DNA from: Thermodesulfobacteriota bacterium
GTDB lineage: Bacteria; Desulfobacterota; Desulfarculia; JACQYL01
Assembly: GCA_963675595.2 (NCBI GenBank)
Contig: CAXXLZ010000002.1
Location: 352,001 to 416,000 of the forward strand
Length of the DNA stretch: 64,000 nucleotides
Direction of reading: 5' to 3'
Position 1 is the first letter of the stretch; the number at the start of each line of letters is the position of its first letter. Shown in pieces: positions 35,754 to 55,750 of this stretch. The notes below the pieces were generated by a model, which saw only the letters and a program-made list of their open reading frames with translations, did no database searches and was not told the DNA's origin. The position numbers and the translations under genes were made by a program.

Positions 35754-36779
35754 TTAAGAGTCTTTCGCTCCGGGACGGTAGCGAATTCCGGTTATCGCTT
35801 CCCGGTCCAGATCGAACAGTGTCACGCTTCGTCCCCCCTGTATCAATCGAACCTTGGAATCTCCGGTAACCCGACCGACTTTGTCGGCCGTCACTCCCTT
35901 CGCCTTGAAGAGATCGAGTACGGTATCCGTGTTTCGAGGAGGCACCGCCAAAACAAACCCGAAACTCTGAAAGCACAGGAGCCAATCGGCAAGAGAAACG
36001 GCATCGGGCCGGGGTATCCGATCGAGATGGATGACGGCCCCTTTTCCGGAATTCTCCATCATCACTGCCGCGGTCCCCAGGATCCCCGCGTTACTCACAT
36101 CTTTGGCCGCCACGGAAAGCTCGCTTTCCGCGATCCGGGGCATGGCGTCAAGCCGGTCCAATATTTGCTCCGAGGTCTTGCCGGAATTGGCATCCCAACT
36201 CACCACGGATCGGCAACCGGGCCGACCGTCCAAATCCACGGCCAGAATCAGATCGTCCCCTTCTTCGGCCAGGTGGCTCCTGAGCACCTTCTTCGCCCAC
36301 CCCAGGATCGCCACACTTAGTGAAGGCTGGTCCTTTGGAGCATCCGGGTGCAGGTGCCCTCCCAACATGGGCACCTTCAACTTCATACATCCCTTGGCGA
36401 TGCCTTCCACAATCCCGGCGAGTTGCTCGTCTTCTCCACAGGCCAAGACATTCACCAGTCCCAAAGGTCGGCCTCCCATGGAATATATGTCGTTCACCGT
36501 CACCATGATCGATGCCTTGCCCGCCGCATAAGGTTCGTGAAGCAGCAGACCGGTCATCATGCCGTCCGCGGCCAGAAGCAAAAACCCGTCCCCCCAAGGG
36601 ATGACCGCAGCGTCGTCCCCGTAGCTCGGGAGTTGCTTTCCATATACCTGTGTACAGGACAATGCCCGCACCACATTTTGAATGGGTCGCTTACGCAGTA
36701 CGCCCTCGTAATTCCTTACCCGCTCAATAATCTCATCGATTTCCGACCGCAACGAATTCTCCTTATTCTTCAGCGGCAA
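35754..36779 (-). CDS. AIR synthase-related protein (sll0787 / NitF / methanogenesis marker 2-like)
   Basis: YGDDAAVI, LLAADG, VTVNDIYSMGGRP, GGHLHP, AKDVSNAGILG, WLLCFQSFGFVL. Confidence 0.85.
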   Translation of the reverse strand: MPLKNKENSLRSEIDEIIERVRNYEGVLRKRPIQNVVRALSCTQVYGKQLPSYGDDAAVIPWGDGFLLLAADGMMTGLLLHEPYAAGKASIMVTVNDIYSMGGRPLGLVNVLACGEDEQLAGIVEGIAKGCMKLKVPMLGGHLHPDAPKDQPSLSVAILGWAKKVLRSHLAEEGDDLILAVDLDGRPGCRSVVSWDANSGKTSEQILDRLDAMPRIAESELSVAAKDVSNAGILGTAAVMMENSGKGAVIHLDRIPRPDAVSLADWLLCFQSFGFVLAVPPRNTDTVLDLFKAKGVTADKVGRVTGDSKVRLIQGGRSVTLFDLDREAITGIRYRPGAKDS

Positions 36780-36848
36780 GAAACAAAGGCGTCCGGAACT
36801 CCGGACCGCCCCTCTCGAGCCTTCTCGAAATCGAAACCTCAGATTGAT

Positions 36849-38426
36849 TCAGGTGAGGTCGGCCGCCATCAACTGGTGACGTTTACCACAAATCCAAACC
36901 GGTTCCCCCACGGGCGTCCACCCGAGTTTTCCGAAGAATCGAATGTTCTGCTCCTGAATGTGGGCGGTAAACCGAGTGCATCCTTTTCCGCGCACGTAAC
37001 GAACGGCCTCACGTACCAGCATTTCACCCACCTGAGAAGATCGGTATTCCCTCAACACGGCGAGCCGTCCGCCCACCCAATGCCCGTCATCTTGATTCGA
37101 CCGAAACACGCGCACCGTGCCCACAATGCCGCCCCCCGTTTCCGCCACGAGGTACGTGCTCGCCGCATCGTGATCGTCCACGTCGGAATCTTCAAAAAGT
37201 CTCTGCTCCTCAACGAAGATCCGGCGTCGAATGTCCAAGGCGTCCCGAATCTCACCCGGGGAACGTACTACATGACACGCCACACGGGAGGGAGCCCCTT
37301 CGTAAAGGGACAAAGCCGAGCAAGCGCCGCACCGGACGCAACCCGCCTTGCATTCCCCGGATGACAGTCCCTTCCTGCGAAGGATTTCCGCCACCGCTTC
37401 ATAGATGTTTTCCATGCGCTCGGGAGCGGGGGGCCTTTTCCCGGCCATGAGTGATCCCGGAACCGGTCTCAACGGAACCACGTACGGAAAAACGCCCAAG
37501 TCGGCAAGCAGTTCTCCGCCCCGAATCACCGATTCGTCCGTTTCGCCCAAACCCACGATGACGAAACTGCTCACCTGGTTGGGTCCGAACAACTCCACGG
37601 CTTTTTTCCAGGCTCGTTCATAGCGTTGCATCCCCAGTTCCGACTTGGCCGGAGCCATACGCGCCAGAACGTCGGGATCGAAACTCTCCGCGTGAATACC
37701 GACGGTAGCCACGCCCGATTCCTTTAGTTTCTCCATTCTCCCAAGATCGCCGGGCGGCATAAACTGAACATGCACCGGGAGTCCCGTGCTTTCGACCACC
37801 GAGCGGGCACATTCTGCGAGGCGATCCAGTTCTTCCCCATCCACAAATGCGGTTCCCGACGTGAGCACCACATGGGAAATCGCGCTGGATGCCAAAGCCG
37901 CCCGGGCGACCTCCGCAAGCTGTTCCGGAGACTTGGTTTCAATTGTGGTTCCGTTGCGAGCAGTAATCTCGACGCCACAGAATCGACATCGGCCACCCGT
38001 CCTCCAGAACCTGCACCGCTGAATCACGGTGCAGGCCAAGCAGTCCGTTCCGTGAAGCAGCGCGATCTTTCGATATCCGACGCCGTTCTCATCCGCAAGC
38101 GAGTAAAATTCGGGTTCCGGGACCACCTCCACGGCAAAGAGCTCTTCTCCGCCGACGGTCAGGAGGAACTCTCCGTCTCTAAGAATCAGGGAATAAGGCG
38201 ATTCGGCGGTATATGCCGCAGCGATGGGTACGTTTTTCGGAATTCCCTCAAACAGAACGGCGCGGCCATCCGCCGGACCCGCACCGCCGCTGCGTCCCTG
38301 CAACGTTCCGGCGACGCGGACGCCCAGGCTCTGCAAGTCCGTAACGACCCTGCGCAGATACCGAGGAAACGATCCGTCGGCGCGAGCAGAGATTTCGGAG
38401 TCCGCAATGGGAGATTGAGAATGCAT
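36849..38426 (-). CDS. MSMEG_0568/NitD-family radical SAM fused to C-terminal GNAT acetyltransferase (NitE / MSMEG_0567 N-terminal-like)
   Basis: RSGGAGPADG, KIALLHG, QRCRFWRTGGRCRFC (CX7CX2C), NQVSSFVIVGLGE, AGCVRCGACSAL; then RRRIFVEEQ..DVDDHD..VGTVR..GGRLAV..AHIQEQN; gaggga RBS before ATG 38426. Confidence 0.85.
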   Translation of the reverse strand: MHSQSPIADSEISARADGSFPRYLRRVVTDLQSLGVRVAGTLQGRSGGAGPADGRAVLFEGIPKNVPIAAAYTAESPYSLILRDGEFLLTVGGEELFAVEVVPEPEFYSLADENGVGYRKIALLHGTDCLACTVIQRCRFWRTGGRCRFCGVEITARNGTTIETKSPEQLAEVARAALASSAISHVVLTSGTAFVDGEELDRLAECARSVVESTGLPVHVQFMPPGDLGRMEKLKESGVATVGIHAESFDPDVLARMAPAKSELGMQRYERAWKKAVELFGPNQVSSFVIVGLGETDESVIRGGELLADLGVFPYVVPLRPVPGSLMAGKRPPAPERMENIYEAVAEILRRKGLSSGECKAGCVRCGACSALSLYEGAPSRVACHVVRSPGEIRDALDIRRRIFVEEQRLFEDSDVDDHDAASTYLVAETGGGIVGTVRVFRSNQDDGHWVGGRLAVLREYRSSQVGEMLVREAVRYVRGKGCTRFTAHIQEQNIRFFGKLGWTPVGEPVWICGKRHQLMAADLT

Positions 38427-38949: not shown

Positions 38950-39393
38950 CTATTTCAAGCCTTGAACCTTGTTTTTCAGTTTTCCGTTCTCTTTGGCCAT
39001 CTGTTTGTAGACTTTGGAGGCCTCTCTGGAGAGCTCCTTCGCCGTTTCCGTGAGGGCGAGGTAGAACGTCTCGCAACTTTCCTCGACGGCGATGGCCTTA
39101 TCCAGGACCCCGGAATTGTCGGTGATTTCGACGTCGGGCAGATACGCCTCCCGGTCAAGTCCACAAACCGGTTCCAGGATCATCTCATTGAGCTTCTGCT
39201 GGCGTGTTTCCTCAAGAAGCCGGTAGCGTTTCTTGTGAACGTCCGCCAGGGCATTGAGGTCTTCCGCCGCAGAGGGCACGCACTCGGCGGCGCTTCTGTA
39301 GAATTCCTCGACAGCCTCCTCCATGCACAGAGAATACCTGATCACGGAGGAAAACGTCTTCATTTCGGGGAATTTGGAGAAGTCTATAGCCAT
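38950..39393 (-). CDS. Rubrerythrin/ferritin-like four-helix protein
   Basis: Repeated helices ..MEEAVEEFY..LADVHKKR / AIAVEESCETFY..MAKEN; overlaps the mmsA end by 10 nt. Confidence 0.7.
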   Translation of the reverse strand: MAIDFSKFPEMKTFSSVIRYSLCMEEAVEEFYRSAAECVPSAAEDLNALADVHKKRYRLLEETRQQKLNEMILEPVCGLDREAYLPDVEITDNSGVLDKAIAVEESCETFYLALTETAKELSREASKVYKQMAKENGKLKNKVQGLK

Positions 39394-40868
39394 CTCGTGA
39401 TCACAACCTTTCTATCCGTGAAGAAGTTGACCGCATCGTAGCCCTGGCCGTGCAGGTCACCGAAGAAGGAATCATTCATTCCGGCGAAGGGGAAATAGGC
39501 CATGGCGGCAACGATGCCGATGTTGATACCGATGTTGCCGGACGTCACTTCGTATCGGAACTTCCGCGCGTCGGGTCCGGAGGAGGTGTAGATCGAGCCC
39601 GCGTTGCCGAAGGGGCAGGCATTCATGAACTCGATGGCCTCGTCCAGGTCCTTGAAACGCATGACCGAAACCACGGGGCCGAAAATTTCTTCCTTGCAGA
39701 TCGTGTGGTCCGGGTTCACTTCCTCAAAGATCGTGGGACCCACAAAGGCGCCATCTTCGTATCCGGGAACCGTGACGTTTCGGCCGTCCACGAGCATCTT
39801 GGCACCTTCTTTAATGCCGACCTCGATGTAATTCAAGACCTTCTGCTGCGCCTTCTTGGAGACCAACGGACCCATGCTGGTGGATTCATCCAGGCCGTAG
39901 CCCAGCTTCAGATTCTTGGCCATGGCCACGAATTGGTCCAGCATCTCATGGTAGAAATCGTCGCCGCCGACGATGGCCAGATTGGCTCCGGCGAGACATC
40001 GCTGACCGGCGCAACCGAAGAAAGAGGAGATCATGTTGGGCACGGTCTTCTTCAGATTGCAGTCGGGCATAACCACGATGGTGTTCTTCGCGCCGCCCTG
40101 CGCCTGCACTCTCTTCTTATACTCGGCGCTGAGCTTGTAGACATGGTGAGCCACCGGAGTGGAACCCACGAAGGAGATTCCCTTGACGTCGGGATGCATC
40201 ATCAGGTGGTCGGCCAACTCGTGGCTGCCGTTCACCAGGTTGATCACACCGGCGGGAAACCCGGCCTCCTCAATGGCCTCAAACATGATCTGCTGCGTCA
40301 TGGGTACCTGGCTGGAGGGCTTGACCACATAGGTGTTGCCCGTAGCCACGGCATACGGCCAGAACCAATAGGGGATCATGGCGGGGAAATTGTAGGGCGA
40401 AAGGCACGCGAACACGCCCAACGGGCAGCGAATGGCTTCTTCGTCGATGCCGGCCGCAGCCCCGTCTTCGAGAGAGTAGCCCATCTGCATGGTGGTAATG
40501 CCGCTGGCGGTCTCCACATTTTCGATGGCTCTCCGCACTTCACCGCGCGATTCGTCGATGGTCTTTCCCATCTCCTGCACCAGGACCCTGGCGAAGTCCT
40601 CGAATCGCTTCTCCATGAGTTCCTTGAGCTTGAACATGTAACGAACGCGGGTCACGGGCGCGGTTTCACGCCAATCCTGATAGGCTTCTTTGGCGGCCGC
40701 CACGGCGTCGTCGATTTCCGACTTGGGGGACATGGGGACCTGCCCGATGACCTCGTTCTTGGCCGGGTTCACAATGTCCTTGCTTTCGCCTTTGGACTCG
40801 ACCCATTCGCCGTCAATGAAGTTTTTCAGGGTACCGTAGTTGGCTTTAACTTCAGGTAAATGCGACAT
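39384..40868 (-). CDS. mmsA: CoA-acylating (methyl)malonate-semialdehyde dehydrogenase
   Basis: PYNFPAMIPYW, FVGSTPVA, QAQGGAKN, GCAGQRCLA, EEIFGPV, FFGDLHGQG, KVVITRW. Confidence 0.9.
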   Translation of the reverse strand: MSHLPEVKANYGTLKNFIDGEWVESKGESKDIVNPAKNEVIGQVPMSPKSEIDDAVAAAKEAYQDWRETAPVTRVRYMFKLKELMEKRFEDFARVLVQEMGKTIDESRGEVRRAIENVETASGITTMQMGYSLEDGAAAGIDEEAIRCPLGVFACLSPYNFPAMIPYWFWPYAVATGNTYVVKPSSQVPMTQQIMFEAIEEAGFPAGVINLVNGSHELADHLMMHPDVKGISFVGSTPVAHHVYKLSAEYKKRVQAQGGAKNTIVVMPDCNLKKTVPNMISSFFGCAGQRCLAGANLAIVGGDDFYHEMLDQFVAMAKNLKLGYGLDESTSMGPLVSKKAQQKVLNYIEVGIKEGAKMLVDGRNVTVPGYEDGAFVGPTIFEEVNPDHTICKEEIFGPVVSVMRFKDLDEAIEFMNACPFGNAGSIYTSSGPDARKFRYEVTSGNIGINIGIVAAMAYFPFAGMNDSFFGDLHGQGYDAVNFFTDRKVVITRWL

Positions 40869-40991
40869 GTAACCATTTCCTCCTGTTTCTGGTTCTTTCC
40901 TATGCCAATGGCTGGATCTTCTCGTTATGCGATGAACACTCCATCATCCCCTCCGGCTACGGTAGCGACGCCGGAGGAGGATACCAAGCCT

Positions 40992-42083
40992 TCACAGAGG
41001 CGACTCCATTGCAAAGGCCACCTTCTTAATTAAATTGGCGGCGATTCGATACGTTCGATCCGTATCGCCGTCGGCCGTCGGTTCCCCCGCCCTTCTGGGG
41101 TTGAATTCCACCACGTCCATGCCGGCGAGGCGGACACCCTCCTCAAGCAAAGGCATTACGGCGGACGCCGCTGCATAGATCTGGCGTTCTTGAAGGCCCT
41201 GCCAATTGCGAAAACGTACTCCCTCCACTGCGTTGCGCGCCCCGATGTCCATGTCCACGGAGACGTAGACATAGGGAGTTTCCACTTGCCGCAAAATTCG
41301 TTTCAGCTTGGACGGACCAACCAGGCAGTCGCTCTTGGTAATCAGCTGGACTCCCAGTTTCTTCAGATCGGAGTAGATGCCCACGTACGCGGCCACGCGC
41401 GGGTCCTTCACTCGAGTAGCTCTCTTCTGAGGGAAGTCGCTGATTCCCACCACATAGAGGTTCTCGGGAAGCACCACCTCGCTCGACAAAAGGTCGTTCA
41501 AGAAGGAACTGGCGTTGTATGACTCCGGTCTCCCACTCAAAAAAGGATCGTTCGGGTCGTGCAGGGATTTAGGGTTGGTGTCCAAATCGTACTGAATCAG
41601 CCCTGTCATGACGGACATGGGAATCGCATCCGTGTGACTGTCCAGTACAATCAGTGAAAGGTTCTCCGAGCCGTAACGATCGGACACGGCCCGGACCACC
41701 CCGCCGGTCAGAGAGTGGTCCACGGCGATCATGCATGGAATCATCGGAAGCACGCGCTCTCGGACCAGATCTTCGACCTGGGAAGCAAAGGTCCGGCAAC
41801 CGTCGCGATCCAAGAAGGCGACGAATTCGTCCACCACGACCCTTGCGGAATCACCGGGCAACGGCTTGGGCCTCAACCACTCAGGAACATCTATGGAGCC
41901 GCGCTCCTCGAACAGGGATTCCGGGACTTCGTTCCGGATCAATTCCATCACCCGATCGTAAGGATCATCGGTCTCTCCCGCCCGCTTAGATACGGAGAGC
42001 TTTTCCTGAATCGAGTCGTCCTTCTCGTCGCAGTCCAAAGGACATCCGAAGAACACGACCTGTCTGTCATCCGGCGGATTCAT
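40992..42083 (-). CDS. Arginase/ureohydrolase family protein (divergent)
   Basis: VDHSLT, LDSHTD, YVSVDMDI, MDVVEFNP. Confidence 0.8.
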   Translation of the reverse strand: MNPPDDRQVVFFGCPLDCDEKDDSIQEKLSVSKRAGETDDPYDRVMELIRNEVPESLFEERGSIDVPEWLRPKPLPGDSARVVVDEFVAFLDRDGCRTFASQVEDLVRERVLPMIPCMIAVDHSLTGGVVRAVSDRYGSENLSLIVLDSHTDAIPMSVMTGLIQYDLDTNPKSLHDPNDPFLSGRPESYNASSFLNDLLSSEVVLPENLYVVGISDFPQKRATRVKDPRVAAYVGIYSDLKKLGVQLITKSDCLVGPSKLKRILRQVETPYVYVSVDMDIGARNAVEGVRFRNWQGLQERQIYAAASAVMPLLEEGVRLAGMDVVEFNPRRAGEPTADGDTDRTYRIAANLIKKVAFAMESPL

Positions 42084-42179: not shown

Positions 42180-43208
42180 CTACTTCGCTTTGCTGAAGTA
42201 GTCGTCCCGCGCCTTTCTAAGCTGCATCACGTTCTCAAGGGGAGAAGGCGGCGCAACACCGCAGCCGGGCGTCAAAAAGTCCGTTCCGTTCTCCAACGCC
42301 TGAATCGACTCCTGGTAACACTCTTCAGGCTTCCCCATGAACAGAGTGGTGGCGGTGGCCACGTTCCCGAAGACCCGGACGCCTTTGGCGCGAGCGATTT
42401 CCACGGCGGCCTTCATATCCGCCTTTTCTTCGATGCTGATGCCCGCCACGCCCGAGTCGCACATCAAGGGAATGATCTTGTCCGTGTTGGCGCAAACATG
42501 AAGCACCAGGGGTCCCTTGGACTTGGCGGCGATGTCTTTGATCATGGGAAGCACGAACTTCTCCCAGGTCTTCGGGCTCATGAGGGCCGGCCCGGAAGAA
42601 GGTTCGGCCATGCAGTAGTAATCCGCACCCTGGTCGAAGGACCAGTTGATCACGTCGATCATGGCCTGTTTGGTCACGTCGATCACTTGCTGGACCTTGT
42701 CCTGTTCTTTGAAGGTCCACTTCATGAACTTCTCGGTTCCCACCAGGTTGCAGGCACAGGTCCACGCACCTTCCGATTCGCCGAAGACGACCATGTCGTT
42801 GCCGATCTTATCCTTAATCAGCTTGAAGTGTTCCTTGTAGGCGGGAAAACGCCCCTTTGAAAGAAAGGCCTCGGCTCCGGGGTAGTCCAGTCCATCCAGG
42901 CTTTCGGCGAATGCATGTCCTTTGATGCAATACTGCAGGTCGATCTTGGGCTCTCCCAAAATGCACCCGAAGACCTCGCTCATGGGGGTAATATCCCATC
43001 CCATGGCCTTGACCCACTCCCAACCCAGGTACTTGGGGCCCGCCAGGGCCAGTTCGGTCATGGCGACCGGGTCGGTATCGGCCAAGGGCCGCTCCGCTCC
43101 GCACTTTTTCATGAGCTCCACAATACCGTAGGTGGTAGTACAGCCGACGGGCGTCATATCCACTTCCTTGCCCATCAGGCAGTTCATCACTCGCTCTTTC
43201 AGGTTCAT
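42180..43208 (-). CDS. MtaA/CmuA-family methylcobamide:thiol methyltransferase (URO-D superfamily)
   Basis: Zn motif LHVC (HxC) plus TPGCGVAP.SPLEN; GAWTCACNLVG; AEPSSG; ATG 43208 after gaggagg. Confidence 0.8.
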   Translation of the reverse strand: MNLKERVMNCLMGKEVDMTPVGCTTTYGIVELMKKCGAERPLADTDPVAMTELALAGPKYLGWEWVKAMGWDITPMSEVFGCILGEPKIDLQYCIKGHAFAESLDGLDYPGAEAFLSKGRFPAYKEHFKLIKDKIGNDMVVFGESEGAWTCACNLVGTEKFMKWTFKEQDKVQQVIDVTKQAMIDVINWSFDQGADYYCMAEPSSGPALMSPKTWEKFVLPMIKDIAAKSKGPLVLHVCANTDKIIPLMCDSGVAGISIEEKADMKAAVEIARAKGVRVFGNVATATTLFMGKPEECYQESIQALENGTDFLTPGCGVAPPSPLENVMQLRKARDDYFSKAK

Positions 43209-43646: not shown

Positions 43647-45101
43647 TTACTTTCCGTTCTCTTCCGGGGGATGCGCTTCCCCGTTTTCAATGGCCTTGAC
43701 CGCAGCTTCTTCCGAGGCGCTCTTGTCGATCTGCTTCGGAGTGTAATGCTCCAGGGCAAAGTACATGATCGCACCGATAATCAGGGCCATGGTGGGGCCG
43801 GACCAGAAGGGGCTTCCCCAAAGTTTCACGTAATTGGCCGTGACCAGAACGGCCCCCATGACGCCGGCGATGCCGCGCTGGAGGTTGTTGGTGCACATGG
43901 CGAACGCGATATAGACGCAGAGGTATCCCTGAATCAGCAGGGTCAGACCGAAACCGATCAGCTTGGCCGGAAGAATGATCTGTACGATGGGATGGAAGAC
44001 CATGGCGATGCTCATGCCCCAGAAGATCGAGGTGGCGCCGCCCCAGTATGAGGGTTCCTGTTCCGCCGTGGAGTTCTTATAGCGGTTCACCACCAAGGCC
44101 TGCCCACCGGTCCACTGGGGTCCGCACAGGGGCAGATAAGGCATGGTCACACCTTCAAGCAGATTTCGGAAAGAGGTGATGAGGTGGTTGCGGGATACCT
44201 GAAAAACGATTTTCTCGTCGGGTCGGGCCTTGTCCGATTCGTCGACCAAAGCCTCCAGTACCAGAATATCGCCGAAAGCGAGAACGTAGGCCACAATGGC
44301 CAAAGAAATGGCGGCTCCCCATGCCGTCGCGGAGGGAAAACCGATGGAGAACGCACTGAACGAGTTGAGCATCTCTCCAAAGGGGATGGCGATGATGAAG
44401 CGATCGAAGACACCGACCGGCATCGGGATTTCCCCGGTAATAAGCCCGGCGAGATACCCGATCACGAAGCCCGGGGCGATCCCAAAGCCCGCCACCCACG
44501 CGAACCAGCCGTATCTTTTGCGGAATTCCATGCCGCGGACCGAAAACAGGATGAAGAAACTGCCAAAAGCCGAAACCAAGAAGGCGATGGGCATCTTCCC
44601 GATAAAGGGCTGTCCGGGGTCGAAAACCCGCATCAGGGCGGCGAACCCGGCGCCGAGCAAAATACCCGCCCGCATGGACACCGGGAAGTGTTTGATTACG
44701 GTTTTCGTAATCCCCGTCACTCCAAGCACGAGAAAAATCAGCCCGACCAGGACCTGAAGTGCGATCAACGCCTGAATGCGCTCGGGCCCGGCTTCAAAAT
44801 CGGTCAGGAAGGATATGTATAGCGGAATACCCGCCGTGATCCAGCCGGCGATGGAAGGATCGCCGAATGATGTGTGCAACAGGTACAGAAAATTGTTGAT
44901 CACCACCATGAGGACCGCAACTTCAATGGGAATTCCCAGGACTTTGACCATGGCTGCGGTAATGCCCAAGGGTACGCAGCTTAGAATGGCGCCCTGGATG
45001 AAATCTTGATACTCGATCCGGTAGTGTACGAAGGGTATCCTCAGTTTGAGCGCGCCACCGGCATATGGCTGCTCTTCTCCATACTTGCGTGCGATTGCCA
45101 T
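43647..45101 (-). CDS. Polytopic permease (xanthine/uracil NCS2-like or DUF3360-like)
   Basis: Roughly 12 hydrophobic segments; LRIPFVHYRIEYQDFIQG, GWITAGIPL, AYVLAFGD, RPDEKI, GPQWTG; aggaga RBS before ATG 45101. Confidence 0.75.
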   Translation of the reverse strand: MAIARKYGEEQPYAGGALKLRIPFVHYRIEYQDFIQGAILSCVPLGITAAMVKVLGIPIEVAVLMVVINNFLYLLHTSFGDPSIAGWITAGIPLYISFLTDFEAGPERIQALIALQVLVGLIFLVLGVTGITKTVIKHFPVSMRAGILLGAGFAALMRVFDPGQPFIGKMPIAFLVSAFGSFFILFSVRGMEFRKRYGWFAWVAGFGIAPGFVIGYLAGLITGEIPMPVGVFDRFIIAIPFGEMLNSFSAFSIGFPSATAWGAAISLAIVAYVLAFGDILVLEALVDESDKARPDEKIVFQVSRNHLITSFRNLLEGVTMPYLPLCGPQWTGGQALVVNRYKNSTAEQEPSYWGGATSIFWGMSIAMVFHPIVQIILPAKLIGFGLTLLIQGYLCVYIAFAMCTNNLQRGIAGVMGAVLVTANYVKLWGSPFWSGPTMALIIGAIMYFALEHYTPKQIDKSASEEAAVKAIENGEAHPPEENGK

Positions 45102-45285: not shown

Positions 45286-46611
45286 TCAGGCCTGCTCGGG
45301 TAGGACTTGATCCACGAGTTCCACCAAATCCACAACCTGCATGCCGCTGCCGATTCGCTTGGCTCCTTCATTGAGATTGAAGTAGCAGAAGGGGCAAATC
45401 GACACCATTTTCTCGGCCCCCGTTTCCATGCCTTCCTCGATTCGCAGGGAAGCATTCTTGGTGGCCCAGTCGCCGAAACCGGTCATCACGCCTCCGCCGC
45501 CTCCGCAGCAAAACGAGTTGGCCCGAATGCGCTCCATCTCCTCGAGTTGAAGCCCCGGAATCGCTTGAAGCAATTCCCTCGGCTCATCGTACAGGCAGTC
45601 GCTCTCATCCACCTCCACATAAGCGCCTTCCCACAGGTCTTTGCCCTCTTTGTCCACCACGAACTTGTTCAGGTGCCGTCCCGTATGACAAGGATCGTGG
45701 TAAGTGACCTTCATGGGCAGTTCGCCGGCGAACTTGAGCTTGCCTTCCTTATACAACCCGTTCAGTAAGTCGGCTGTGTGAATGACTTCGATCCCATCCA
45801 TCACCTCGTCGTACTCGGACGAGAGCACATAGTCCTTCTTGATGGCCCGGAAGCATCCGGCGCAGGACGTGATAATTCTTTTAACGCCCTTTTCGTCGCG
45901 AAGCTTCTTGAAGGTTTCGAGGTTCAGGGTCGCCACGCGCTTGAATTCCTCCGCGTCACCAACTCTCATAGCCGTGGACCCGCAACAGACTTCGTTTTCA
46001 CCCAAGATCCCGAAATCGAGTCCGAGTTTCTGAAAAATGGAGGCCGTGGCCGTGGGTACGGCACGTGCTCCCGTGTTGAAGGCGCCCGTGCAACCCACAT
46101 AGAACAGGTTGGGAGCGGCTTCCTTGTTGATGTCTTTGATGGGCTTGCCGGCTTTCTTAAAGGGCCGTGTCCAATCGGTGCGCACCCTCCGAGGTCCCTG
46201 GTAGGGGTTGTTGTAGTTGCGCATGGACTGAGTCAGGTTCTTGTGAAGCGGCATGGGGCCTTTGCCGGATTTAACCGCCTCGCGGCGCAAGGCTTCGATC
46301 ACTTCCGGAATGTGCGGCTTGTAGTCCACCTGACACTGATTCTGACAACCGGCGCAGATGGTGCATTTGTATATGGCTTCGAGAAACTCGGGGTCGTCGA
46401 AGCTCAGCACTCCGGCGGTCAGACCGCGGGCATAGGCGGCTTTTCCCTTGGAGGAGTAGTACCCTTCAAAGCCGAACTCGGTACCCGCGGGACAGATGGG
46501 CTTGGCCACCGGGGGCGGACCGTACGTATAGGCCGTGCGGCAGGTTCCGCAGGCGGTGCATCGCCAGAAATACCTTTCCAGATCTTTCAGATCCGGTATG
46601 TTCCATTCCAT
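45286..46611 (-). CDS. HdrD/GlcF-like Fe-S oxidoreductase with two CCG domains
   Basis: CTACGTC..ICP, CTICAGCQNQC, VCCG, TSCAGC, YHDPCH, FCCGGGGG, ICPFC. Confidence 0.9.
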   Translation of the reverse strand: MEWNIPDLKDLERYFWRCTACGTCRTAYTYGPPPVAKPICPAGTEFGFEGYYSSKGKAAYARGLTAGVLSFDDPEFLEAIYKCTICAGCQNQCQVDYKPHIPEVIEALRREAVKSGKGPMPLHKNLTQSMRNYNNPYQGPRRVRTDWTRPFKKAGKPIKDINKEAAPNLFYVGCTGAFNTGARAVPTATASIFQKLGLDFGILGENEVCCGSTAMRVGDAEEFKRVATLNLETFKKLRDEKGVKRIITSCAGCFRAIKKDYVLSSEYDEVMDGIEVIHTADLLNGLYKEGKLKFAGELPMKVTYHDPCHTGRHLNKFVVDKEGKDLWEGAYVEVDESDCLYDEPRELLQAIPGLQLEEMERIRANSFCCGGGGGVMTGFGDWATKNASLRIEEGMETGAEKMVSICPFCYFNLNEGAKRIGSGMQVVDLVELVDQVLPEQA

Positions 46612-46682
46612 TCAAAAACCTCCGTATCCGTTGTCCTACAAACGTTTTCGTTGCGCTTATGGTCCTTGAAACCGTGGGACCG

Positions 46683-48128
46683 TCAGATTCCCAGCTTGCC
46701 CGGATTCATGATGTCGTTGGGATCAAGCATTTGCTTGACCTTTTTCAAAAGCATCAGGTAACCGGGATGCGCCCGTTGGTTGATCTCCTTGGCGAAGTCC
46801 ACGGGGGGCTTGTACGGGATGCCGCCCTCGTCCAGGTCCACCTTGAGGCATTCCACGATGGCCCTGCGGGCATTCTCGATGTCGTCGGGATTCTGTTTGT
46901 TGAAGGGAATCATGGCGCGAAGCATGCCGTAATGAACGCCTCGGTACATGGACATGCGCACGGAAGGGGAGAGGTTGGCGTCGATGAGAATCTCTTTCCA
47001 TCTCGAGTATACGGGCGCCCACTTCTTGGCGGGAGTAAAGGTGCCCGGCCAGGAAATGCCGGCCCCCGCCATCTTACAGTAGTTCTTGGTGGAGCCCACG
47101 ATCTGGCTGGGTAATTGGGTCCTCGCTTTGAGCGCTTCTTCGGGATACTGAGTGACCTTCAGGGAAGTACCTTTCTTCTTCTCCTCCTCAACCACCGTTT
47201 CCCACATCTCTTCTTTGGCTTCCTTCTCTTTTTCCGTGAAGGAAGTGGTGTTGGCGAAACTGAACCATTCCGGAGACTCGTCCGGCTTCGCGCGATAGGG
47301 ATAGGGGATGGGTACCTGAGCCAGCCACCACGAAACCGCGGTGAGGTCGTCGCAGATTTCGTAATTGCTCAGATTCAGCATGTAGGAATACATATCCTGC
47401 ACGTTGTCGCAGGACACGGTGAACACCTTGAGGACCGGGGGAATGGGATGGACGCCGACGCCCAGCTTGGTGATCACGCCGGTGCTTCCCAGCCAGCCTT
47501 TGAACAGGCCGTCCATTTGGGGCATGGGGAGTACGCTGTGCCAAGCGTTTTCCTGAATGGCGCAGGACCCTACGCGCACCAGTTCACCGGTGGGCAACAC
47601 CACTTCCATGCTGGTGATTTCCTGGCTGTTGAGACCGTATCGGGCGTTGAGCCCCCCGATGCCGTGGGAAATGGCGCAGGAAGACACGGAAGCCGAGGGG
47701 GGACCCACCGGCCAACCGAATCTCAAATTGTGTTTGTAGAGCGCTTCGGCGAGTTGGGCGTGACTGACGCCGGGTTCGACGACCGCGTAATGGGATTCCG
47801 CGTCGATATCGAGAATCCGGTTCATGCGTTTGAGGTCCATCAGAATGCCGCCTCTTTCCGGAATCGTGAGGCCTCCGATGTTGGTGCCCGCAGTATAGGG
47901 AGTTACCGGGATTTTCTCCTGGTTGGCGAAGCGCATGATCCCCTGGACCTGCTCGACGTTCTCCACCAGAACCACGTAATCGGGCATTTTGGGCTGCACG
48001 AAAGACAAATCGTAAGAGTAGGCGAATCGTACGTGCTTGGCCGCGGTGGCGTTCTTCGCACCCACGATGGACTGCAATTCCTTCAAGACCCTTTCGTCGA
48101 AACGGCCTTCATCGAACATGTAGTGCAC
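46683..48128 (-). CDS. GlcD / D-lactate dehydrogenase-like FAD-binding oxidoreductase
   Basis: PDYVVL, AGTNIGG, DLKRMNRI, VEPGV, EVVLPTGE, GSTGVITK, DPNDIMNPGK; GTG 48128 after aggagg. Confidence 0.88.
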   Translation of the reverse strand: MHYMFDEGRFDERVLKELQSIVGAKNATAAKHVRFAYSYDLSFVQPKMPDYVVLVENVEQVQGIMRFANQEKIPVTPYTAGTNIGGLTIPERGGILMDLKRMNRILDIDAESHYAVVEPGVSHAQLAEALYKHNLRFGWPVGPPSASVSSCAISHGIGGLNARYGLNSQEITSMEVVLPTGELVRVGSCAIQENAWHSVLPMPQMDGLFKGWLGSTGVITKLGVGVHPIPPVLKVFTVSCDNVQDMYSYMLNLSNYEICDDLTAVSWWLAQVPIPYPYRAKPDESPEWFSFANTTSFTEKEKEAKEEMWETVVEEEKKKGTSLKVTQYPEEALKARTQLPSQIVGSTKNYCKMAGAGISWPGTFTPAKKWAPVYSRWKEILIDANLSPSVRMSMYRGVHYGMLRAMIPFNKQNPDDIENARRAIVECLKVDLDEGGIPYKPPVDFAKEINQRAHPGYLMLLKKVKQMLDPNDIMNPGKLGI

Positions 48129-48230: not shown

Positions 48231-48968
48231 TCACACGGACCGGAAACTCTTGAAACTCTCCGGACCTTGCAGGGCGAAGTAGCTGATCAAGCCTTCTTCA
48301 ACCTCCTTGATGTGACGGTACATTTCGACGCGGGCCCGCTCGGGGTCACGCATTCGAAGTGCGTCCAGAATCCTTTTGTGCGCCAGAAAAACGGCGACGG
48401 AAAAGTCATGATCGGTGTGGATCAGATCTTTGATGCCCACAAGCATGTCGCGCACCGAATCCATGACCAGACAGATGATGGCATTCCCGGCAATGGTGGC
48501 GATTTTCTGATGAAAATAGATTTCGAGTTCATGAGAAAATCGACCGTTGTCCAGCGTTTCCTTCATGTCCCAGAGATTCTTTTCCAGCTCGTCGACTTCC
48601 TCGTTGGTTGCGATTTGGGCGGTGATCTCGCAAAGCTGAGGTTCGATGATGCATCGGACCTGGGAGAGCTCCGAGATGGACGGGTTGCGGAAAAACAAAT
48701 AGTTGGTGAGGCAATCCCGGGCCTTCTGCGCGTCCACCTCTCGCACGAAAGCCCCGCCTGAGACTCCCTGCCGTACCTCGAGAAGTCCTAGAGCTTCGAG
48801 GGCTCGAAACGCCTCTCTAAGCGAAGCCTTGCTGACCCCGAAATCGTCCGCCAAGTCTTTTTCCGCAGGCAGCCGGTCGCCGGGCTTGAGCCGACCTTCA
48901 AGGATCGCCTGCCTGATCTGCTGCACGATGTTTTCCGAAATTCGATTGAACTTGGCTGATTTGAACAT
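48231..48968 (-). CDS. GntR/FadR-family transcriptional regulator
   Basis: LKPGDRLPAEKDLADDFGVSKASLREA wHTH; FCD domain FHQKIA..GN, H..ILDAL..RD; aggaagga RBS. Confidence 0.93.
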   Translation of the reverse strand: MFKSAKFNRISENIVQQIRQAILEGRLKPGDRLPAEKDLADDFGVSKASLREAFRALEALGLLEVRQGVSGGAFVREVDAQKARDCLTNYLFFRNPSISELSQVRCIIEPQLCEITAQIATNEEVDELEKNLWDMKETLDNGRFSHELEIYFHQKIATIAGNAIICLVMDSVRDMLVGIKDLIHTDHDFSVAVFLAHKRILDALRMRDPERARVEMYRHIKEVEEGLISYFALQGPESFKSFRSV

Positions 48969-49097: not shown

Positions 49098-49266
49098 ATT
49101 CCTAACATTAGCGGTCTTTTCATGTAACATCCCGGATTTACTAACGATATGTACGAGAAGATTCGCTTTCTCGGTTCCGGATCGCCTCGAAGGCGTATCC
49201 CCCCGCCGGAGGTTTCCGGTTATATAAGAATAAGAATTGTTTCACAAATCCAAACATAAGGGGACG

Positions 49267-49635
49267 ATGAACATGGGAGTTAAAGTTGACGCACTCAAGT
49301 GCATCGGATGCATGGCTTGCGAAATGGCGTGCGGCTACCACAGGGACGACGGGTTCGCCTTCCTTTCCGCATGCATCGTTCTTTATCGCGGCCGTGAGAA
49401 GAAGAACTACTTCGGCGTGCTCCTCAAGGAAGAGGAAGACCTGGTCGTTTTCCGGCCCGAAGGTATGGAAGTGAAGAAAATCGGCGCCACGGACGACGAA
49501 CCCGGGGAGCAGAAGGAAGGGGATGCCTCCGCCAAGCCCATGCTGCTGAGAGAAGCCTGCGACCTCTGCGAAGAGATGGAACACGGCCCCATGTGCGTTA
49601 AGGTCTGCCCCGTGGACGCCATCATCGTTGAATAA
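49267..49635 (+). CDS. 4Fe-4S dicluster protein (AOR-associated type)
   Basis: CIGCMACEMAC ... CDLC ... CVKVCPVDAI. Confidence 0.85.
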   Translation: MNMGVKVDALKCIGCMACEMACGYHRDDGFAFLSACIVLYRGREKKNYFGVLLKEEEDLVVFRPEGMEVKKIGATDDEPGEQKEGDASAKPMLLREACDLCEEMEHGPMCVKVCPVDAIIVE

Positions 49636-49645
49636 GGAGAATGCC

Positions 49646-50956
49646 ATGGAGTATTTGTCGTCCGATAAGATTCTCATTGTGGACCTGGCCGCCGGGGAAA
49701 TCAGCGAAGACGAGCTGAGTGAAGACCTCGTTGCCGAAAAGATCGGCGGCGCGGCCGTGAACAAGGCACTTTATGAACAACACGCCGACGGAGACCCCAT
49801 CGTCATCGGTACGGGCCTGCTCAGCGGCACCCTGTGCCCCGGCTCGTCCCTCGCCGTCCTTACCGGCAAAAGCCCGATTACGGGAAAACTCGCCCACGCG
49901 CCCATCACTTTTCACGTAGGTATCGAGCTCAAATACGCGGGCTTCGATTATGTCGTACTCAAGGGTAAGGCGGATAAGCCGGTGTTTCTTTGGATTCACG
50001 ACGGCGTAGCCGACGTGAACGACGCTTCCGACGTTTGGGGATCCGACGTTTGGCAGAGCACGGATGCCTGGCGCAAGGCCTTGGGCGACGACCTCATCCA
50101 GACCATGGTGATCGGCCCGGCCGGAGAATCCGGTTCCGATGCGGCCCAGGTCTGTTTGAACTACTGGCCGAGCGGAGATCGCTTCGGCTTCGGCAGGCTT
50201 TTCGGCGAAAAGAACCTGAAAGGAATCGCCCTCCGAGGGATGGGACTCCTGGAAATCGCGGACGCCGAAGGATTCGTCGACAAGTGTCTCGAAATCATTC
50301 CCCAGGTAAAAGACGGAGCGCTCAAAGGCAAGAAAGGCGTGGAAGACATCTGCGCGGCCATGGGGCACGCGGACGTCAAGGAGTGGTTGGCTCCCATCGT
50401 ACACCGCCACACGGCCTCCTACAACAGCCCCTATCCCACCCAAACCTTCGTATTTCTGGATGAAGATCCGGCTCTCAAGACCGAATCCGCCGTTGCGGAA
50501 CCCGGCTTCAGACTGGACGATCCCGATGCCGTTCTCGGCTTCAAGAATCTCGGTCTGGAGGCCAAAGAAGCCTGCCGGTTGATGTGTCTTTGCGCCCGGA
50601 AGGGGCTGAGCGCCGCAGCGGTTGCTCAACTCAGCGAAAAAGCCGGCAAGAAGAGCGCTCAGGAAATCGAAGCTTCTCTGGACTCTCTCACCGGAACCGT
50701 GGAACTCGCCGGTCAAGGCATTTTCAGTCCCTGGTGTCCCCGCAGTCCCTTGTTCGGAGATTTCGGCGCGTCCGACGCAGCTTCCTGGTGGGAACGCAGA
50801 CAAGCCGTGGCTTACGTTTTCGGAATCGACCCCATGTTCGCAGTCATGTCTCCTGAATTGACCGAGGAGTTGCTCCTCGAGCTGGCCGGAATCGGAACCG
50901 AAATCGAATTCACTTCCGATACGTTGGAATCCGTTGTGAGCGATCTTCAAGTCTGA
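49646..50956 (+). CDS. Aldehyde:ferredoxin oxidoreductase (AOR)-like protein, short and degenerate
   Basis: KILIVDL, GKSPITG, ELKYAGFD..VLKGKADKPV.LWI, IGPAGE, GEKNLKGIALRG N-terminal domain; only 436 aa; aaggaga RBS. Confidence 0.82.
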   Translation: MEYLSSDKILIVDLAAGEISEDELSEDLVAEKIGGAAVNKALYEQHADGDPIVIGTGLLSGTLCPGSSLAVLTGKSPITGKLAHAPITFHVGIELKYAGFDYVVLKGKADKPVFLWIHDGVADVNDASDVWGSDVWQSTDAWRKALGDDLIQTMVIGPAGESGSDAAQVCLNYWPSGDRFGFGRLFGEKNLKGIALRGMGLLEIADAEGFVDKCLEIIPQVKDGALKGKKGVEDICAAMGHADVKEWLAPIVHRHTASYNSPYPTQTFVFLDEDPALKTESAVAEPGFRLDDPDAVLGFKNLGLEAKEACRLMCLCARKGLSAAAVAQLSEKAGKKSAQEIEASLDSLTGTVELAGQGIFSPWCPRSPLFGDFGASDAASWWERRQAVAYVFGIDPMFAVMSPELTEELLLELAGIGTEIEFTSDTLESVVSDLQV

Positions 50957-51161: not shown

Positions 51162-52478
51162 ATGGGTAATCCGTACGAACCGATCATCGCGTCGAATCGC
51201 GCCCTGGCCGATGGGCAACGCGTTTACCTGAGAGTGGGGAACGACGGCCCCCGGCCGAGCTCCACCAACGGAGACGGCGGCCGTCCCCTATCCTACCCCG
51301 CCATCGGAGTTTACGCCGGTGGAGGTTCTTCCCATTCCTGGCTGTGGTTCGCGGAGATTTTCGATCGATTGGGTTTCCATCGCGTCAGGTTTCTTGACGA
51401 ATACGAGGTGGAAAAAGGGGGGCTGAACGGTCTGGACGTGTTCGCGGTGTCCGGCGGGGATACCTTTGCCGTGGCCCGTGCCTTGGGAGCCGCGGGAGCC
51501 GAACGAATCGAAGCGTTCGTCCGGGAAGGCGGCCTCTACATCGGAACCTGCGCGGGCGCCTATCTTCCCCTCCGCTCTTCCAAGGAACACCTCAGGTTAT
51601 TCAACTTCGTCGAAGCCAAGATTTCCAACCTGTCCAGGAACCTTCCGGAACCCAAACACATGGCTCACAAATTCTGCACCTCATACGGATGCGATTTCGT
51701 GTTCCATCCCGTGAGGGAAGACGTGGCTTTGAAGACCACTGGGAGACTCCCCTTTCCCAAAGGCATGGAGGTTGTCGCCCCCATGTACGGCGGTCCGGGA
51801 ATGACGACTTCCGAAGGCACCGAAATCCTGCTGGAATACGGCGGATTCACCCCGCGGACTCAGTTCCTTGTCGACGAGGCCTTGGCGGAGGAAACCCTTG
51901 TTCAAAAGGCCGCCGTCATCCGCTCCGCATTGGGCAAAGGCAAGTTCCTCCTGTTCGGTCCCCATTTCGAGCACCCGCGATTTTCCGAGGCGAACGCCAT
52001 GCTCGCTCACCTAATTTACTGGGATGCCGAAGCCCGCGCGTTTCCGAAAAAGGGTTCCCAAATGGTCGAAGTGGTCGCGCCGGAGGCCGACCGCAGGAAA
52101 TTCGCCCAAGAGCTACGTCGTGAACTGAGTAATTCCCGCATTGTCGCCGCCGGGATGGAGCTGTTGCCGCTCCGATGGAAGATCGGTGCCAAGCTTTACG
52201 AACCTGAGAAATTGCGCGTCTTCCTCGAAGCGCTTTGGTCCAGGCTTCGCCATTTTGAACGAGGACCGTTTCGAGCGCCCGAAGAGGAAACCCGCGGATT
52301 GACGGAGTCTGCGAAGGAAACCACCAAAGCATTACGCCGATTGAAGTCCGAGGTGGACGCGAAAACCGAAACCACGGAGCTCGCGTCGGAGTGTTTCCGC
52401 CTTCTCCATGTGCTTTCAATCGGCCTCCTGAACCTGTACTTCAGGAACCGGTCGGAACTCGGGGCAATCGACACCTGA
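51162..52478 (+). CDS. BPL_N / class I glutamine-amidotransferase-like domain protein with helical C-terminal extension
   Basis: IGVYAGGG, AVSGGD, GGLYIGTCAGAY (nucleophile Cys), YGGP, GPHFE (H-x-E). Confidence 0.75.
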   Translation: MGNPYEPIIASNRALADGQRVYLRVGNDGPRPSSTNGDGGRPLSYPAIGVYAGGGSSHSWLWFAEIFDRLGFHRVRFLDEYEVEKGGLNGLDVFAVSGGDTFAVARALGAAGAERIEAFVREGGLYIGTCAGAYLPLRSSKEHLRLFNFVEAKISNLSRNLPEPKHMAHKFCTSYGCDFVFHPVREDVALKTTGRLPFPKGMEVVAPMYGGPGMTTSEGTEILLEYGGFTPRTQFLVDEALAEETLVQKAAVIRSALGKGKFLLFGPHFEHPRFSEANAMLAHLIYWDAEARAFPKKGSQMVEVVAPEADRRKFAQELRRELSNSRIVAAGMELLPLRWKIGAKLYEPEKLRVFLEALWSRLRHFERGPFRAPEEETRGLTESAKETTKALRRLKSEVDAKTETTELASECFRLLHVLSIGLLNLYFRNRSELGAIDT

Positions 52479-52514: not shown

Positions 52515-53456
52515 ATGCGCCGCCGGACACCGGATCAACTCATTGTTTCAAAGGGGTTCACATTGGACTACAAATCGCACTTTCAAACCCGTATCCCGAA
52601 GCATGGAGCACTCCGCCTCCTGCCGAGATTCCTCATTGTGGTTACGGCCCTCGCCCTGTGCGGGGTCCCCGAGGTATGGGCGGACGCTTCCATCGGCTCC
52701 GATTCTTCATGGTTCGTGGACATGAACCGATATGCGGCTTCGGCCCACGGCGCCCTTGCCTGTGAGAAATGCCACGACAACATCATGGAAGACGGGCCAA
52801 ACCACCCGAAAACGGATAACGCTTCCTTATTGGACGAGGCCACTCGTAATTTCGATTACGGACGCTGTGCGGCGTGTCACGCTTCGGCGGTTCAACGTAC
52901 TCGGGAAGGCGCCCACGCCAAGGCTCTCGCGGAGGAACTCGCCCCCCCGGCTGAAGGCGCTGAGGCCTCTGAAAAGAAGAAGGCTCCCACCTGCGGCGAA
53001 TGCCACTCCGCGCATTACGCGCCCTCCGGGCGATCCAGGCTGGAAACCGGCAAGGAGATGACCGAAACCTGCGGCCGATGCCACCCGGCTCACCGGGCGA
53101 GCTATCTGGCCGACTTCCACGGCAGGGCGGCGGTGAAACTGGGGAATACCCGTTCGGCTTATTGCTCCGATTGCCACGGCGCTCACAACACCGTTTCTCT
53201 TAAGGAAAACGACAAAGCCCTGGCGGCCTGCCTCCGATGCCACCCGGATGCCGACGAAGGCTTCTCCCGGGTGGTGATCCATGCCTCCCTGGACACCATC
53301 GAACAGAAAGAGCAGGAGAAGAAGGAATCCCTGATCCTGGTCCATAGGGTTCGCGTCGTAGCCTTTGCCGTGGTGGCCCTGGTGTTGGTGTTCTTTTTCG
53401 GCCACTCCTTTCTTTGGATCATGAGAGAACTCCACGAAAAGTTGAGGAATCGCTAA
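52515..53456 (+). CDS. Multiheme cytochrome c (6 CxxCH) with C-terminal membrane anchor; start uncertain
   Basis: CEKCH, CAACH, CGECH, CGRCH, CSDCH, CLRCH; signal-like segment and C-terminal TM containing His. Confidence 0.9.
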   Translation: MRRRTPDQLIVSKGFTLDYKSHFQTRIPKHGALRLLPRFLIVVTALALCGVPEVWADASIGSDSSWFVDMNRYAASAHGALACEKCHDNIMEDGPNHPKTDNASLLDEATRNFDYGRCAACHASAVQRTREGAHAKALAEELAPPAEGAEASEKKKAPTCGECHSAHYAPSGRSRLETGKEMTETCGRCHPAHRASYLADFHGRAAVKLGNTRSAYCSDCHGAHNTVSLKENDKALAACLRCHPDADEGFSRVVIHASLDTIEQKEQEKKESLILVHRVRVVAFAVVALVLVFFFGHSFLWIMRELHEKLRNR

Positions 53457-53457
53457 C

Positions 53458-54180
53458 ATGCAAAATAAACAGCCCCAAGTCGAGACGGTTCAGCGGTTCA
53501 GCGTCCTGCACCGATTCCTTCATCTGGTGGTGATGATCGGATTTACGGTTCTGGCGGTCACGGGCCTGAGCCTCGCATTCAGTTCACAGTTCTGGGCCCG
53601 GGCGATCATGTGGATACTGGGCGGCCAAGAAAACGCAGGCGACGTGCATCGCTTCTTCGCCGTGGTGACCTACTCCGCAGTTGTGGCGCACCTGGTCTGG
53701 TTTCTATATTACAAGCTGGTCCTGAAAGGCCGGTGGACCGGTCCCCGGTCCCTCCTGCCGAGCATGCGGGACTTCAAGGATATGTCCGAGCACTTCCGGT
53801 TCTTTTTCGCCCGTAGGTCCCGGCCCCCGAAATTCAACAAGTTCTCCTACCTCGAGAAGTTCGATTATTGGGCGTTTTTCCTCGGTATGAACACCATGGG
53901 ACTCACCGGTCTCTTCCTGTGGTTCCCGGAAGCCTTCAGCCGAGTGTTGCCCGGATTTTTCGTAAATCTCGCCCAGGTGCTTCACCTTTACGAGGCCGTC
54001 ATGGCCATCGCACTGAAGCTGGTCCTTCATACGATCACGGTACATTTCCGCCCGTCGGTATATCCCGGAGACACTTCCATTTTTACGGGTAACACGACCA
54101 TGGAGAAGATGAAGCACGAGCATGCCGGCGAGTGGGAGGCTCGGGTCGCCGAGGATATCAACACCACACCGGGCAAGTAG
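53458..54180 (+). CDS. Cytochrome b (FdnI-like / b6 domain)
   Basis: RFSVLHRFLH, LAVTGL, VHRFFA, KFSYLEKFDYWA, HLYEAVMA, H..VHFRP. Confidence 0.88.
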   Translation: MQNKQPQVETVQRFSVLHRFLHLVVMIGFTVLAVTGLSLAFSSQFWARAIMWILGGQENAGDVHRFFAVVTYSAVVAHLVWFLYYKLVLKGRWTGPRSLLPSMRDFKDMSEHFRFFFARRSRPPKFNKFSYLEKFDYWAFFLGMNTMGLTGLFLWFPEAFSRVLPGFFVNLAQVLHLYEAVMAIALKLVLHTITVHFRPSVYPGDTSIFTGNTTMEKMKHEHAGEWEARVAEDINTTPGK

Positions 54181-54208
54181 AGTCCAAGCGCAAGGAATTG
54201 GGGTTCTT

Positions 54209-55639: not shown

Positions 55640-55750
55640 TCCGGATTCGAGTCGAGGGCCGGAAACGCCGCCATTGAGTAGTCACCGGGTTCGGTCGTTG
55701 AACGTCCCCGAGGGATGGACCGAACCCGTCAATCCGAAGAGGAATGGATC

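Follow-up and report, generated by a model that had tools for sequence, protein, structure and literature searches.

A Nit1C-type radical SAM-GNAT fusion and AIR-synthase-fold protein travel with BPL_N and HdrD-like proteins in Thermodesulfobacteriota and may make a coenzyme-B-like thiol

We analyzed 64,000 nucleotides (here, the window) of contig CAXXLZ010000002.1 from a Thermodesulfobacteriota bacterium (assembly GCA_963675595.2, positions 352,001 to 416,000), in which a radical SAM protein of the NitD (MSMEG_0568) family is fused to a GNAT domain of the NitE family and is followed by a gene for an AIR-synthase-fold protein (AIRS). Across the phylum, this trio occurs with two further proteins encoded in the window, a BPL_N protein and an HdrD-like protein, and it is very probably an autonomous unit that is tied to these partners and not to nitrile use. 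The set is a real, widespread, and apparently undescribed variant of the Nit1C core, in which BPL_N and an HdrDE-like complex replace NitB, NitC, NitG, and NitH. From the observed anatomy, conserved residues, and co-occurrence, we infer all of the chemistry and the product: with confidence that falls somewhat short of even, we propose a coenzyme-B-like thiol as the product of the four enzymes, to be recycled by the HdrDE-like complex.

Co-occurrence was assessed in 401 genomes of the same phylum, each at least 85% complete, which were searched four times with cut-offs set before each search; related genomes are not independent samples, and no P value is given. AIRS was found at 1e-30 in 42 genomes, and BPL_N, at the same threshold, was found in the identical 42 (here, carriers). 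At 1e-95, with the top four candidates per genome scored, the HdrD-like protein was present in 41 of the 42 carriers and in none of the 359 other genomes; the carrier missing it is an 85%-complete assembly of 650 contigs. At 1e-30, 67 genomes matched the radical SAM protein. All but one of the 42 carriers were among them, and the other 26 were non-carriers, whose relatives were weaker and scored no more than 177 bits. The family cut-off was exceeded in 37 genomes, all of them carriers, and in the single carrier without a match, AIRS lies at a contig edge. Carriers belong to 14 families and make up ∼10% of the sampled genomes; they are oxygen-avoiding sediment bacteria. In mixed families (5/12, 1/11, and 7/14), the four genes are present or absent together. 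A link to sulfate reduction was considered and rejected, as dsrA was found in 21 of the 41 other carriers.

Nit1C is presented in the available text of three papers (PMC1199592, PMC7815647, and PMC11049912) as a conserved seven-gene unit in which D, E, and F have family labels only. In the present genome (98.03% complete, three contigs, dsrA present), the nitrilase (NitC) model scored at best 39.9 bits against a cut-off of 502.6, and the nitB, nitG, and nitH models gave no matches; each of the four models exceeded its cut-off in one control genome. Likewise, canonical NitB, NitG, and NitH found no match in the genome by tblastn. These three queries also gave no match in 140 neighborhood loci (1.67 Mb), where a distant DsrE protein alone was seen in 6 loci, and the NitC query had two matches there, one of them full-length at 33% identity. 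None of 46 carrier genomes reached the NitC cut-off, and 28 of them had no match at 1e-15; no Nit1C gene adjoins the three near-misses (431 to 441 bits). An earlier note, made from the sequence of this DNA, had reported that nitrilase, nitB, nitG, and nitH are missing from the window, which we now extend to the whole genome, where the complete Nit1C set that would have spoken against it was not found. Its suggestion that the trio is an autonomous unit reused for another client in an anaerobe is supported by the carrier genomes, in which BPL_N, not mentioned in the note, emerges as a fourth enzyme traveling, like the HdrD-like protein, with the trio.

It is therefore very improbable that the trio simply belongs to Nit1C nitrile assimilation, as a normal component or a remnant, the other genes having been lost or lying elsewhere. 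The radical SAM and GNAT domains do exceed the cut-offs of Nit1C families, and the radical SAM protein and AIRS are 40% and 36% identical to canonical NitD and NitF, but the near-exact linkage to another gene set, together with the negative searches for nitB, nitC, nitG, and nitH, already largely refutes this explanation. Compared with Nit1C (nitBCDEFGH; sll0783-0787; MSMEG_0565-0572 or "gpr"), the order of NitD-family radical SAM, NitE-family GNAT, and AIRS is equal. In contrast to Nit1C, D and E are fused here, AIRS falls outside the NitF clade, a cysteine (C129) stands where canonical NitD has Val, and the partners are BPL_N and the HdrD-like protein.

The fusion is a single uninterrupted frame whose ATG is preceded by a ribosome site, GGAGGGAG. 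Its residues 29 to 376 scored 350.6 bits on TIGR04043 (cut-off, 303.7), and residues 383 to 524 scored 124 bits on TIGR04045 (cut-off, 68.45), confirming the domain assignment of the earlier note; the SAM-cluster motif is CX8CX2C (C138-X8-C147-X2-C150), not CX7CX2C as stated there. All 119 other homologues among the best 120 of 2514 matches have the same architecture (52 to 59% identity, 94 to 100% query coverage), which excludes a sequencing artefact. Those that are named come from Desulfobacterales and other Thermodesulfobacteriota, and a protein scan of the named genomes gave two true loci and one chance match (L005). The fusion is split in 10 of 23 classifiable loci of the phylum, where the genes mostly still adjoin those for HdrD, NarI-like, SsuABC, and BPL_N proteins.

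Four cysteines beyond the SAM motif (C129, C363, C366, and C369) are invariant in 26/26 fusions. Canonical NitD keeps the equivalents of the last three, and radical SAM relatives at 23 to 25% identity are without these extra cysteines, which are candidate ligands of an auxiliary cluster. The predicted structure of the fusion (predicted local distance difference test [pLDDT] score of 90) matches ElaA/YjcF-type GNATs and HydE/PylB-type barrels. In one carrier, a second copy is preceded by cysteine-desulfurase, ThiF, TusA, and PP-loop genes, and DsrE proteins are encoded upstream of some copies.

Several other settings of NitD-family genes were seen. In five genomes of one genus (L045:6961-11216 and L047 to L050), a divergent fusion (35 to 39% identity) lies directly 3′ of hgcA-hgcB and 5′ of a ThiF gene; hgcA and hgcB both exceed their cut-offs in L045. 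Genes for AOR and ThiS/MoaD are nearby in four of the five, the stretch holds no AIRS, and several of these copies have lost cysteines of the SAM motif or the C terminus. In L220 to L222, distant radical SAM relatives (23 to 27%) without the C-terminal cysteines cluster with ThiF-like, JAB, and pyridoxal-phosphate cysteine-synthase-like genes. One carrier has a gene of the ferredoxin-dependent bilin-reductase fold between importer and radical SAM (L164:6580-7254), and L176 has a gene of similar size. In a plasmid collection, NitD-family radical SAM genes occurred on 511 records, 370 of them from Klebsiella, and many of the listed rows overlap a Nit6803-family nitrilase.

AIRS probably starts at the second TTG near 36752, behind AAGGAG. 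It had been called sll0787-like in the earlier note; the AIR-synthase fold stands, while the NitF assignment does not, as AIRS scored 290.3 on the sll0787/NitF model TIGR04049 (cut-off, 321.3) and slightly higher, 299.6, on methanogenesis marker protein 2 (Mmp2; TIGR03267), its best-scoring model. The Mmp2 cut-off of 365 was also missed in all 42 carriers (best, 329.4). Residues K30, D56, D97, H142, D227, and S229 are common to Mmp2-like and NitF rows, whereas R29, D72, D182, D196, and N230 are shared more with Mmp2-like rows than with NitF; several pocket residues are also in common with Mmp2. In the available text of PMC12978539, mmp2 clusters in methanogens with markers 3, 5, 6, 15, and 17; neither of our two methanogen controls has the radical SAM protein.

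A quick IQ-TREE run with outgroups (56 rows, with 12 of 27 NitF and 10 of 29 Mmp2-like rows omitted at random and all intermediate rows left out) recovered NitF as one clade (96, starred) and 17 of 18 carrier rows as a separate group (92), the two joining at 87 (unstarred). FastTree on all 115 rows grouped the carriers with the Mmp2-like rows. The one placement that the trees support is that AIRS lies outside the NitF clade.

The AIRS model (pLDDT, 95) gave fold Z scores of 26.3 for PurL, 25.6 for HypE, 24.7 for ThiL, and 23.7 for SelD. A SelD role is not favored, as no Cys is found in the stretch around the conserved K30, by comparison with the SelD motif. As a HypE-like client, [NiFe]-hydrogenase genes were rejected, being matched in 0 of 92 related loci. 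The window itself encodes, at 30028 to 33657 on the plus strand, [NiFe]-hydrogenase small and large subunits, a maturation protease, and a HypC-like gene, as read by eye.

Other neighbors of AIRS were noted as well. In two genomes of one genus (L169:10309-11649 and L175), a threonine synthase gene lies directly 3′ of AIRS; threonine is part of coenzyme B, and the adjacency may be due to chance. In several metagenome loci (L058, L062, L072, L075, L086, and L118), AIRS is followed by glycine/sarcosine/betaine reductase A and C, a thioredoxin-like gene, and corrinoid, activator, and MtrH-like methyltransferase genes. In clusters P0272 and P0431, a GNAT-AIRS fusion (one member labeled Clostridia) and an HdrD orthologue sit on contigs that share the same three lengths, circumstantially hinting that the system may extend beyond the phylum with another fusion order.

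The partner genes lie mostly 13 to 19 kb from the fusion/AIRS pair, in an island of two divergent arms (Table 1). The minus-strand arm runs from the GntR regulator through the GlcD-like oxidase, CCG protein, probable transporter, MtaA-type methyltransferase, arginase-fold hydrolase, and methylmalonate-semialdehyde dehydrogenase (MMSDH) to the fusion and AIRS; the plus-strand arm runs from ferredoxin and the AOR-N protein through BPL_N, three cytochrome/NarI subunits, and the HdrD-like protein to the SsuABC-type importer. In relatives, the fusion is often directly behind the importer, which indicates that both arms form one system. Neighbors were counted through an open reading frame filter in the 92 related loci, many of which are on short contigs, and a few of the counts are distant paralogues: AIRS in 79, binding protein in 34, MMSDH in 23, arginase-fold hydrolase in 21, MtaA-like in 18, and HdrD-like in 16. 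A flavoprotein that is not in the window was present in 29. Promoter and terminator counts were at chance level. Directly after the importer, at 60763 to 62244 (plus strand), lies a gene for a B12-binding radical SAM protein, which near other copies has distant relatives only (25 to 28%).

Table 1. Features of the island, in positions of the window
Feature	Position	Strand	Remarks
PurM/ThiL/SelD/HypE-fold protein (AIRS), predicted ATP-dependent	35754..36779	-	Core; clade between methanogen Mmp2 and NitF
Radical SAM (NitD/MSMEG_0568 family)-GNAT (NitE family) fusion	36849..38426	-	Core; 525 aa
Arginase-fold hydrolase, CoA-acylating MMSDH, short rubrerythrin-like gene	38950..42083	-	Accessory; directly 5′ of fusion
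MtaA-type methyltransferase	42180..43205	-	Accessory; NF004889, 268 against 244; HxC and GCG motifs
Hydrophobic protein, probable transporter	43647..45101	-	484 aa; no family match; 76-84% identity in relatives
FAD-linked oxidase (GlcD-like) and second CCG protein (TfrB/GlcF-like)	45286..48125	-	Accessory client arm
GntR/FCD regulator	48231..48968	-	Head of left arm
Ferredoxin and protein with AOR N-terminal domain	49237..50956	+	Head of HdrD arm
BPL_N/class I glutamine-amidotransferase-like protein	51162..52478	+	Core; Cys130-His268-Glu270
Multiheme cytochrome c, cytochrome b, and cytochrome c-NarI (HdrE-like) membrane subunits	52515..55639	+	Directly 5′ of HdrD-like gene; recurring in relatives
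HdrD-like protein	55715..57268	+	Core; two 4Fe-4S motifs and two intact CCG domains
Protein of ~244 aa	57286..58020	+	No Pfam/NCBIfam match; recurs between HdrD and importer in some loci
SsuABC-type ABC importer	58233..60761	+	Binding protein over aliphatic-sulfonate cut-off; invariant HxCC

The catalytic triad of BPL_N is intact, with GxCAG and HxE invariant in 17/17 proteins, and an additional conserved C-terminal helical region is present. According to the portion of PMC3641634 available, the BPL_N family and type 1 glutamine amidotransferases are homologues. AIRS and BPL_N could thus form a PurL/PurQ-type amidotransferase, a PurM-fold enzyme with a class I amidotransferase-like partner, which together with the radical SAM-GNAT protein (Elp3-like in domain order) would either produce a cofactor other than a thiol or modify a protein (HdrD or a carrier). 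PurL is the best match of AIRS in both sequence and fold, and Elp3 is among the fold-search matches of the fusion. However, the Elp3 match is poor (template modeling [TM] score, ∼0.3; root mean square deviation, 15 to 17), with the domain order alone in common; PurL leads HypE, ThiL, and SelD by <3 Z; no small carrier protein common to all loci was seen among the recurring neighbors; and the coenzyme M links described below are left unexplained. AIRS is also a single module, unlike PurL/PurQ, BPL_N has its extra helical region, and the genome encodes PurL-sized and PurM-like proteins of its own. A predicted complex of an AIRS dimer with BPL_N (score, 0.16; mark, 0.32) gave no answer. We regard this possibility as unlikely and lean toward a small thiol, rather than a protein modification, as the product of the trio.

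The HdrD-like protein has the architecture of the HdrDE complex of Methanosarcina, which works with coenzymes M and B: two 4Fe-4S motifs and two intact CCG domains beside a NarI-type membrane subunit. Carriers also have a coenzyme M methyltransferase, a sulfonate importer, and comABDE. In contrast to Methanosarcina, the complex here is bacterial, with added multiheme cytochromes, and the likeness is known from gene architecture; the label "heterodisulfide reductase subunit D" on homologues is an automatic annotation.

Coenzyme M is linked to the set in three ways. First, the SsuA-type binding protein passes the aliphatic-sulfonate family cut-off (181.5 against 163.5) and keeps HxCC in 46/46 full-length copies; its close orthologues, at 1e-60 or better, occur in 30 of the 41 other carriers and in none of 13 non-carriers. 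Second, MtaA passes the cut-off of the methylcobalamin:coenzyme M methyltransferase subfamily, with a close orthologue in 16/41 carriers and 0/13 non-carriers. Third, ComA is present in 14/41 carriers and exceeds its cut-off in 2/37 non-carriers. Among the 12 of these 14 carrier comA loci that were fetched, comD and comE adjoin in 10, and comA, comB, comD, and comE are all present in 8; in one representative each, ComA and ComD exceed their cut-offs, ComE scored 206.7 against 221.5, and ComB was recognized by Pfam only. The ComA carriers and the MtaA carriers do not overlap. Directly 5′ of comA-comB-comD-comE in 10 of the 12 loci (L232 to L243) lies a gene of the QueH (epoxyqueuosine reductase) family, a candidate for a missing redox or thiolation step of coenzyme M synthesis.

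These links could also mean that the set finishes or derivatizes coenzyme M itself, by placing sulfur in an imported or ComABDE-made C2 sulfonate or by making an N-acyl-taurine-type thiol, with the HdrD-like complex reducing the homodisulfide. Consistent with this, the comA-B-D-E operons have no identified final step, most carriers have the sulfonate-type importer, and the separation of ComA and MtaA carriers resembles a choice between making and importing. Against it, eight carriers have neither route, and a GNAT, an ATP enzyme, and a hydrolase would exceed the needs of one thiolation; on balance, we consider it improbable.

The accessory arm could instead point to a catabolic role. A GntR regulator, importer, MtaA, oxidase, arginase-fold hydrolase, and MMSDH share one island, and corrinoid, activator, and MtrH-like genes are near in some loci, so the island could be a route for a methylated sulfonate or thiol of the sediment, such as methyl-coenzyme M or the coenzyme M-coenzyme B heterodisulfide shed by methanogens, with the four enzymes acting on the substrate. 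The oxidase has a close orthologue in 17/41 carriers and 0/13 non-carriers (any match at 1e-40 in 36/41). However, this arm is found in 16 to 17 of 41 carriers only, whereas the core is in nearly all, and ComA in 14 carriers points to synthesis. A purely catabolic island therefore seems quite unlikely.

We return to the coenzyme-B-like thiol. The double-CCG reductase-like protein is accompanied by an acyltransferase, a probable sulfur insertase, a phosphoryl-transfer enzyme predicted to depend on ATP, and a cysteine-hydrolase-like protein; most simply, these would make the thiol that it uses. Coenzyme B is 7-mercaptoheptanoyl-threonine phosphate (available text of PMC11619418), a mercapto-acyl amide phosphate whose synthesis would call for such steps. 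We propose that the radical SAM-GNAT, AIRS, and BPL_N proteins, traveling with the HdrD-like protein, may make a small acylated thiol that would be the bacterial equivalent of coenzyme B, and that the HdrDE-like membrane complex would recycle it as a disulfide, probably with coenzyme M. The GNAT would move an acyl group from acyl-CoA onto an amine; the radical SAM enzyme would place sulfur into an unactivated C-H of the acyl chain by means of an auxiliary cluster on C363/C366/C369; AIRS would, with ATP, either phosphorylate the product in the manner of ThiL or activate an amide oxygen; and BPL_N would release the product or supply ammonia. The SsuA-type transporter would bring in coenzyme M or a sulfonate precursor here, and other carriers have comA-B-D-E. 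The MtaA/GlcD/second-CCG/MMSDH arm may be one client, loading the thiols with methyl groups or electrons.

Published work offers partial parallels. According to the available text of PMC9585515, cysteines outside the SAM motif ligate an auxiliary cluster in LipS1 and LipS2, which add sulfur to an octanoyl chain. This lipoate route reportedly serves sHdr, and the analogy is a radical SAM enzyme with extra cysteines alongside an Hdr-like enzyme. Unlike in that route, the motif here is CX8CX2C and not CX3CX2C, there is one radical SAM protein, and no lipoyl carrier or ligase was recognized among the recurring neighbors. Nit1C mutants show peroxide sensitivity and NADPH shifts (available text of PMC6039565 and PMC3901256), phenotypes that would fit a thiol, although their authors explained them otherwise. 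An AIR-synthase-like protein of no known function is present in all methanogens, according to the accessible part of PMC4153887.

Several observations weigh against the coenzyme-B-like thiol. The genomes in the co-occurrence count are related and are not independent samples. Coenzyme B does not call for amidine chemistry of the PurL/PurQ kind, to which an obligate glutaminase-like partner is suited. The GNAT domain resembles ElaA/YjcF-type acetyltransferases (TM score, ∼0.9) more closely than it does FeeM, an N-acyl amino acid synthase (0.65), and the radical SAM domain matches the LipS2 model weakly (32.7 against 270 bits). The AIRS fold is nearly tied among PurL, HypE, ThiL, and SelD, the nearer relative of its clade (Mmp2 or NitF) differs between trees, and Mmp2 functions without the radical SAM protein, which is missing from both methanogen controls. 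CCG proteins have many uses, and the closeness of the HdrD-like protein to Methanosarcina HdrD is presumed. As for coenzyme M, the importer orthologue, ComA, and the MtaA orthologue are all missing in 8/41 carriers; one family accounts for 8 of the 14 ComA carriers; comC or a final thiol-forming gene was not identified in the comA operons; and ComA, ComD, and cysteate synthase were not found in this genome.

A stronger version, which we consider unlikely, is a full methanogen-style cycle of the coenzyme M-coenzyme B heterodisulfide. Here the four enzymes would produce coenzyme B or a close analogue by radical SAM chemistry, AIRS and Mmp2 would be ATP-dependent enzymes finishing coenzyme B, and aerobic Nit1C would make the same class of thiol.

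The literature, in which subscription journals were mostly outside coverage, gave no account of this gene set and no function for Mmp2 or NitD/E/F. To our knowledge, no function has been assigned to NitD, NitE, or NitF since the first description of Nit1C in 2005, all methanogens have marker protein 2 but its reaction is not known, and no gene is assigned to a late step of coenzyme B synthesis. Homologues of NitD/E/F and Mmp2 are now tied, genome by genome, to one hydrolase-like and one HdrD-like protein, in lineages that also have coenzyme M genes, and the four-gene set and a defined class of product make their functions directly testable. If the product is indeed a coenzyme-B-like thiol, bacteria would have heterodisulfide bioenergetics with a dedicated cofactor, and the set would name a candidate for the late step of coenzyme B synthesis.

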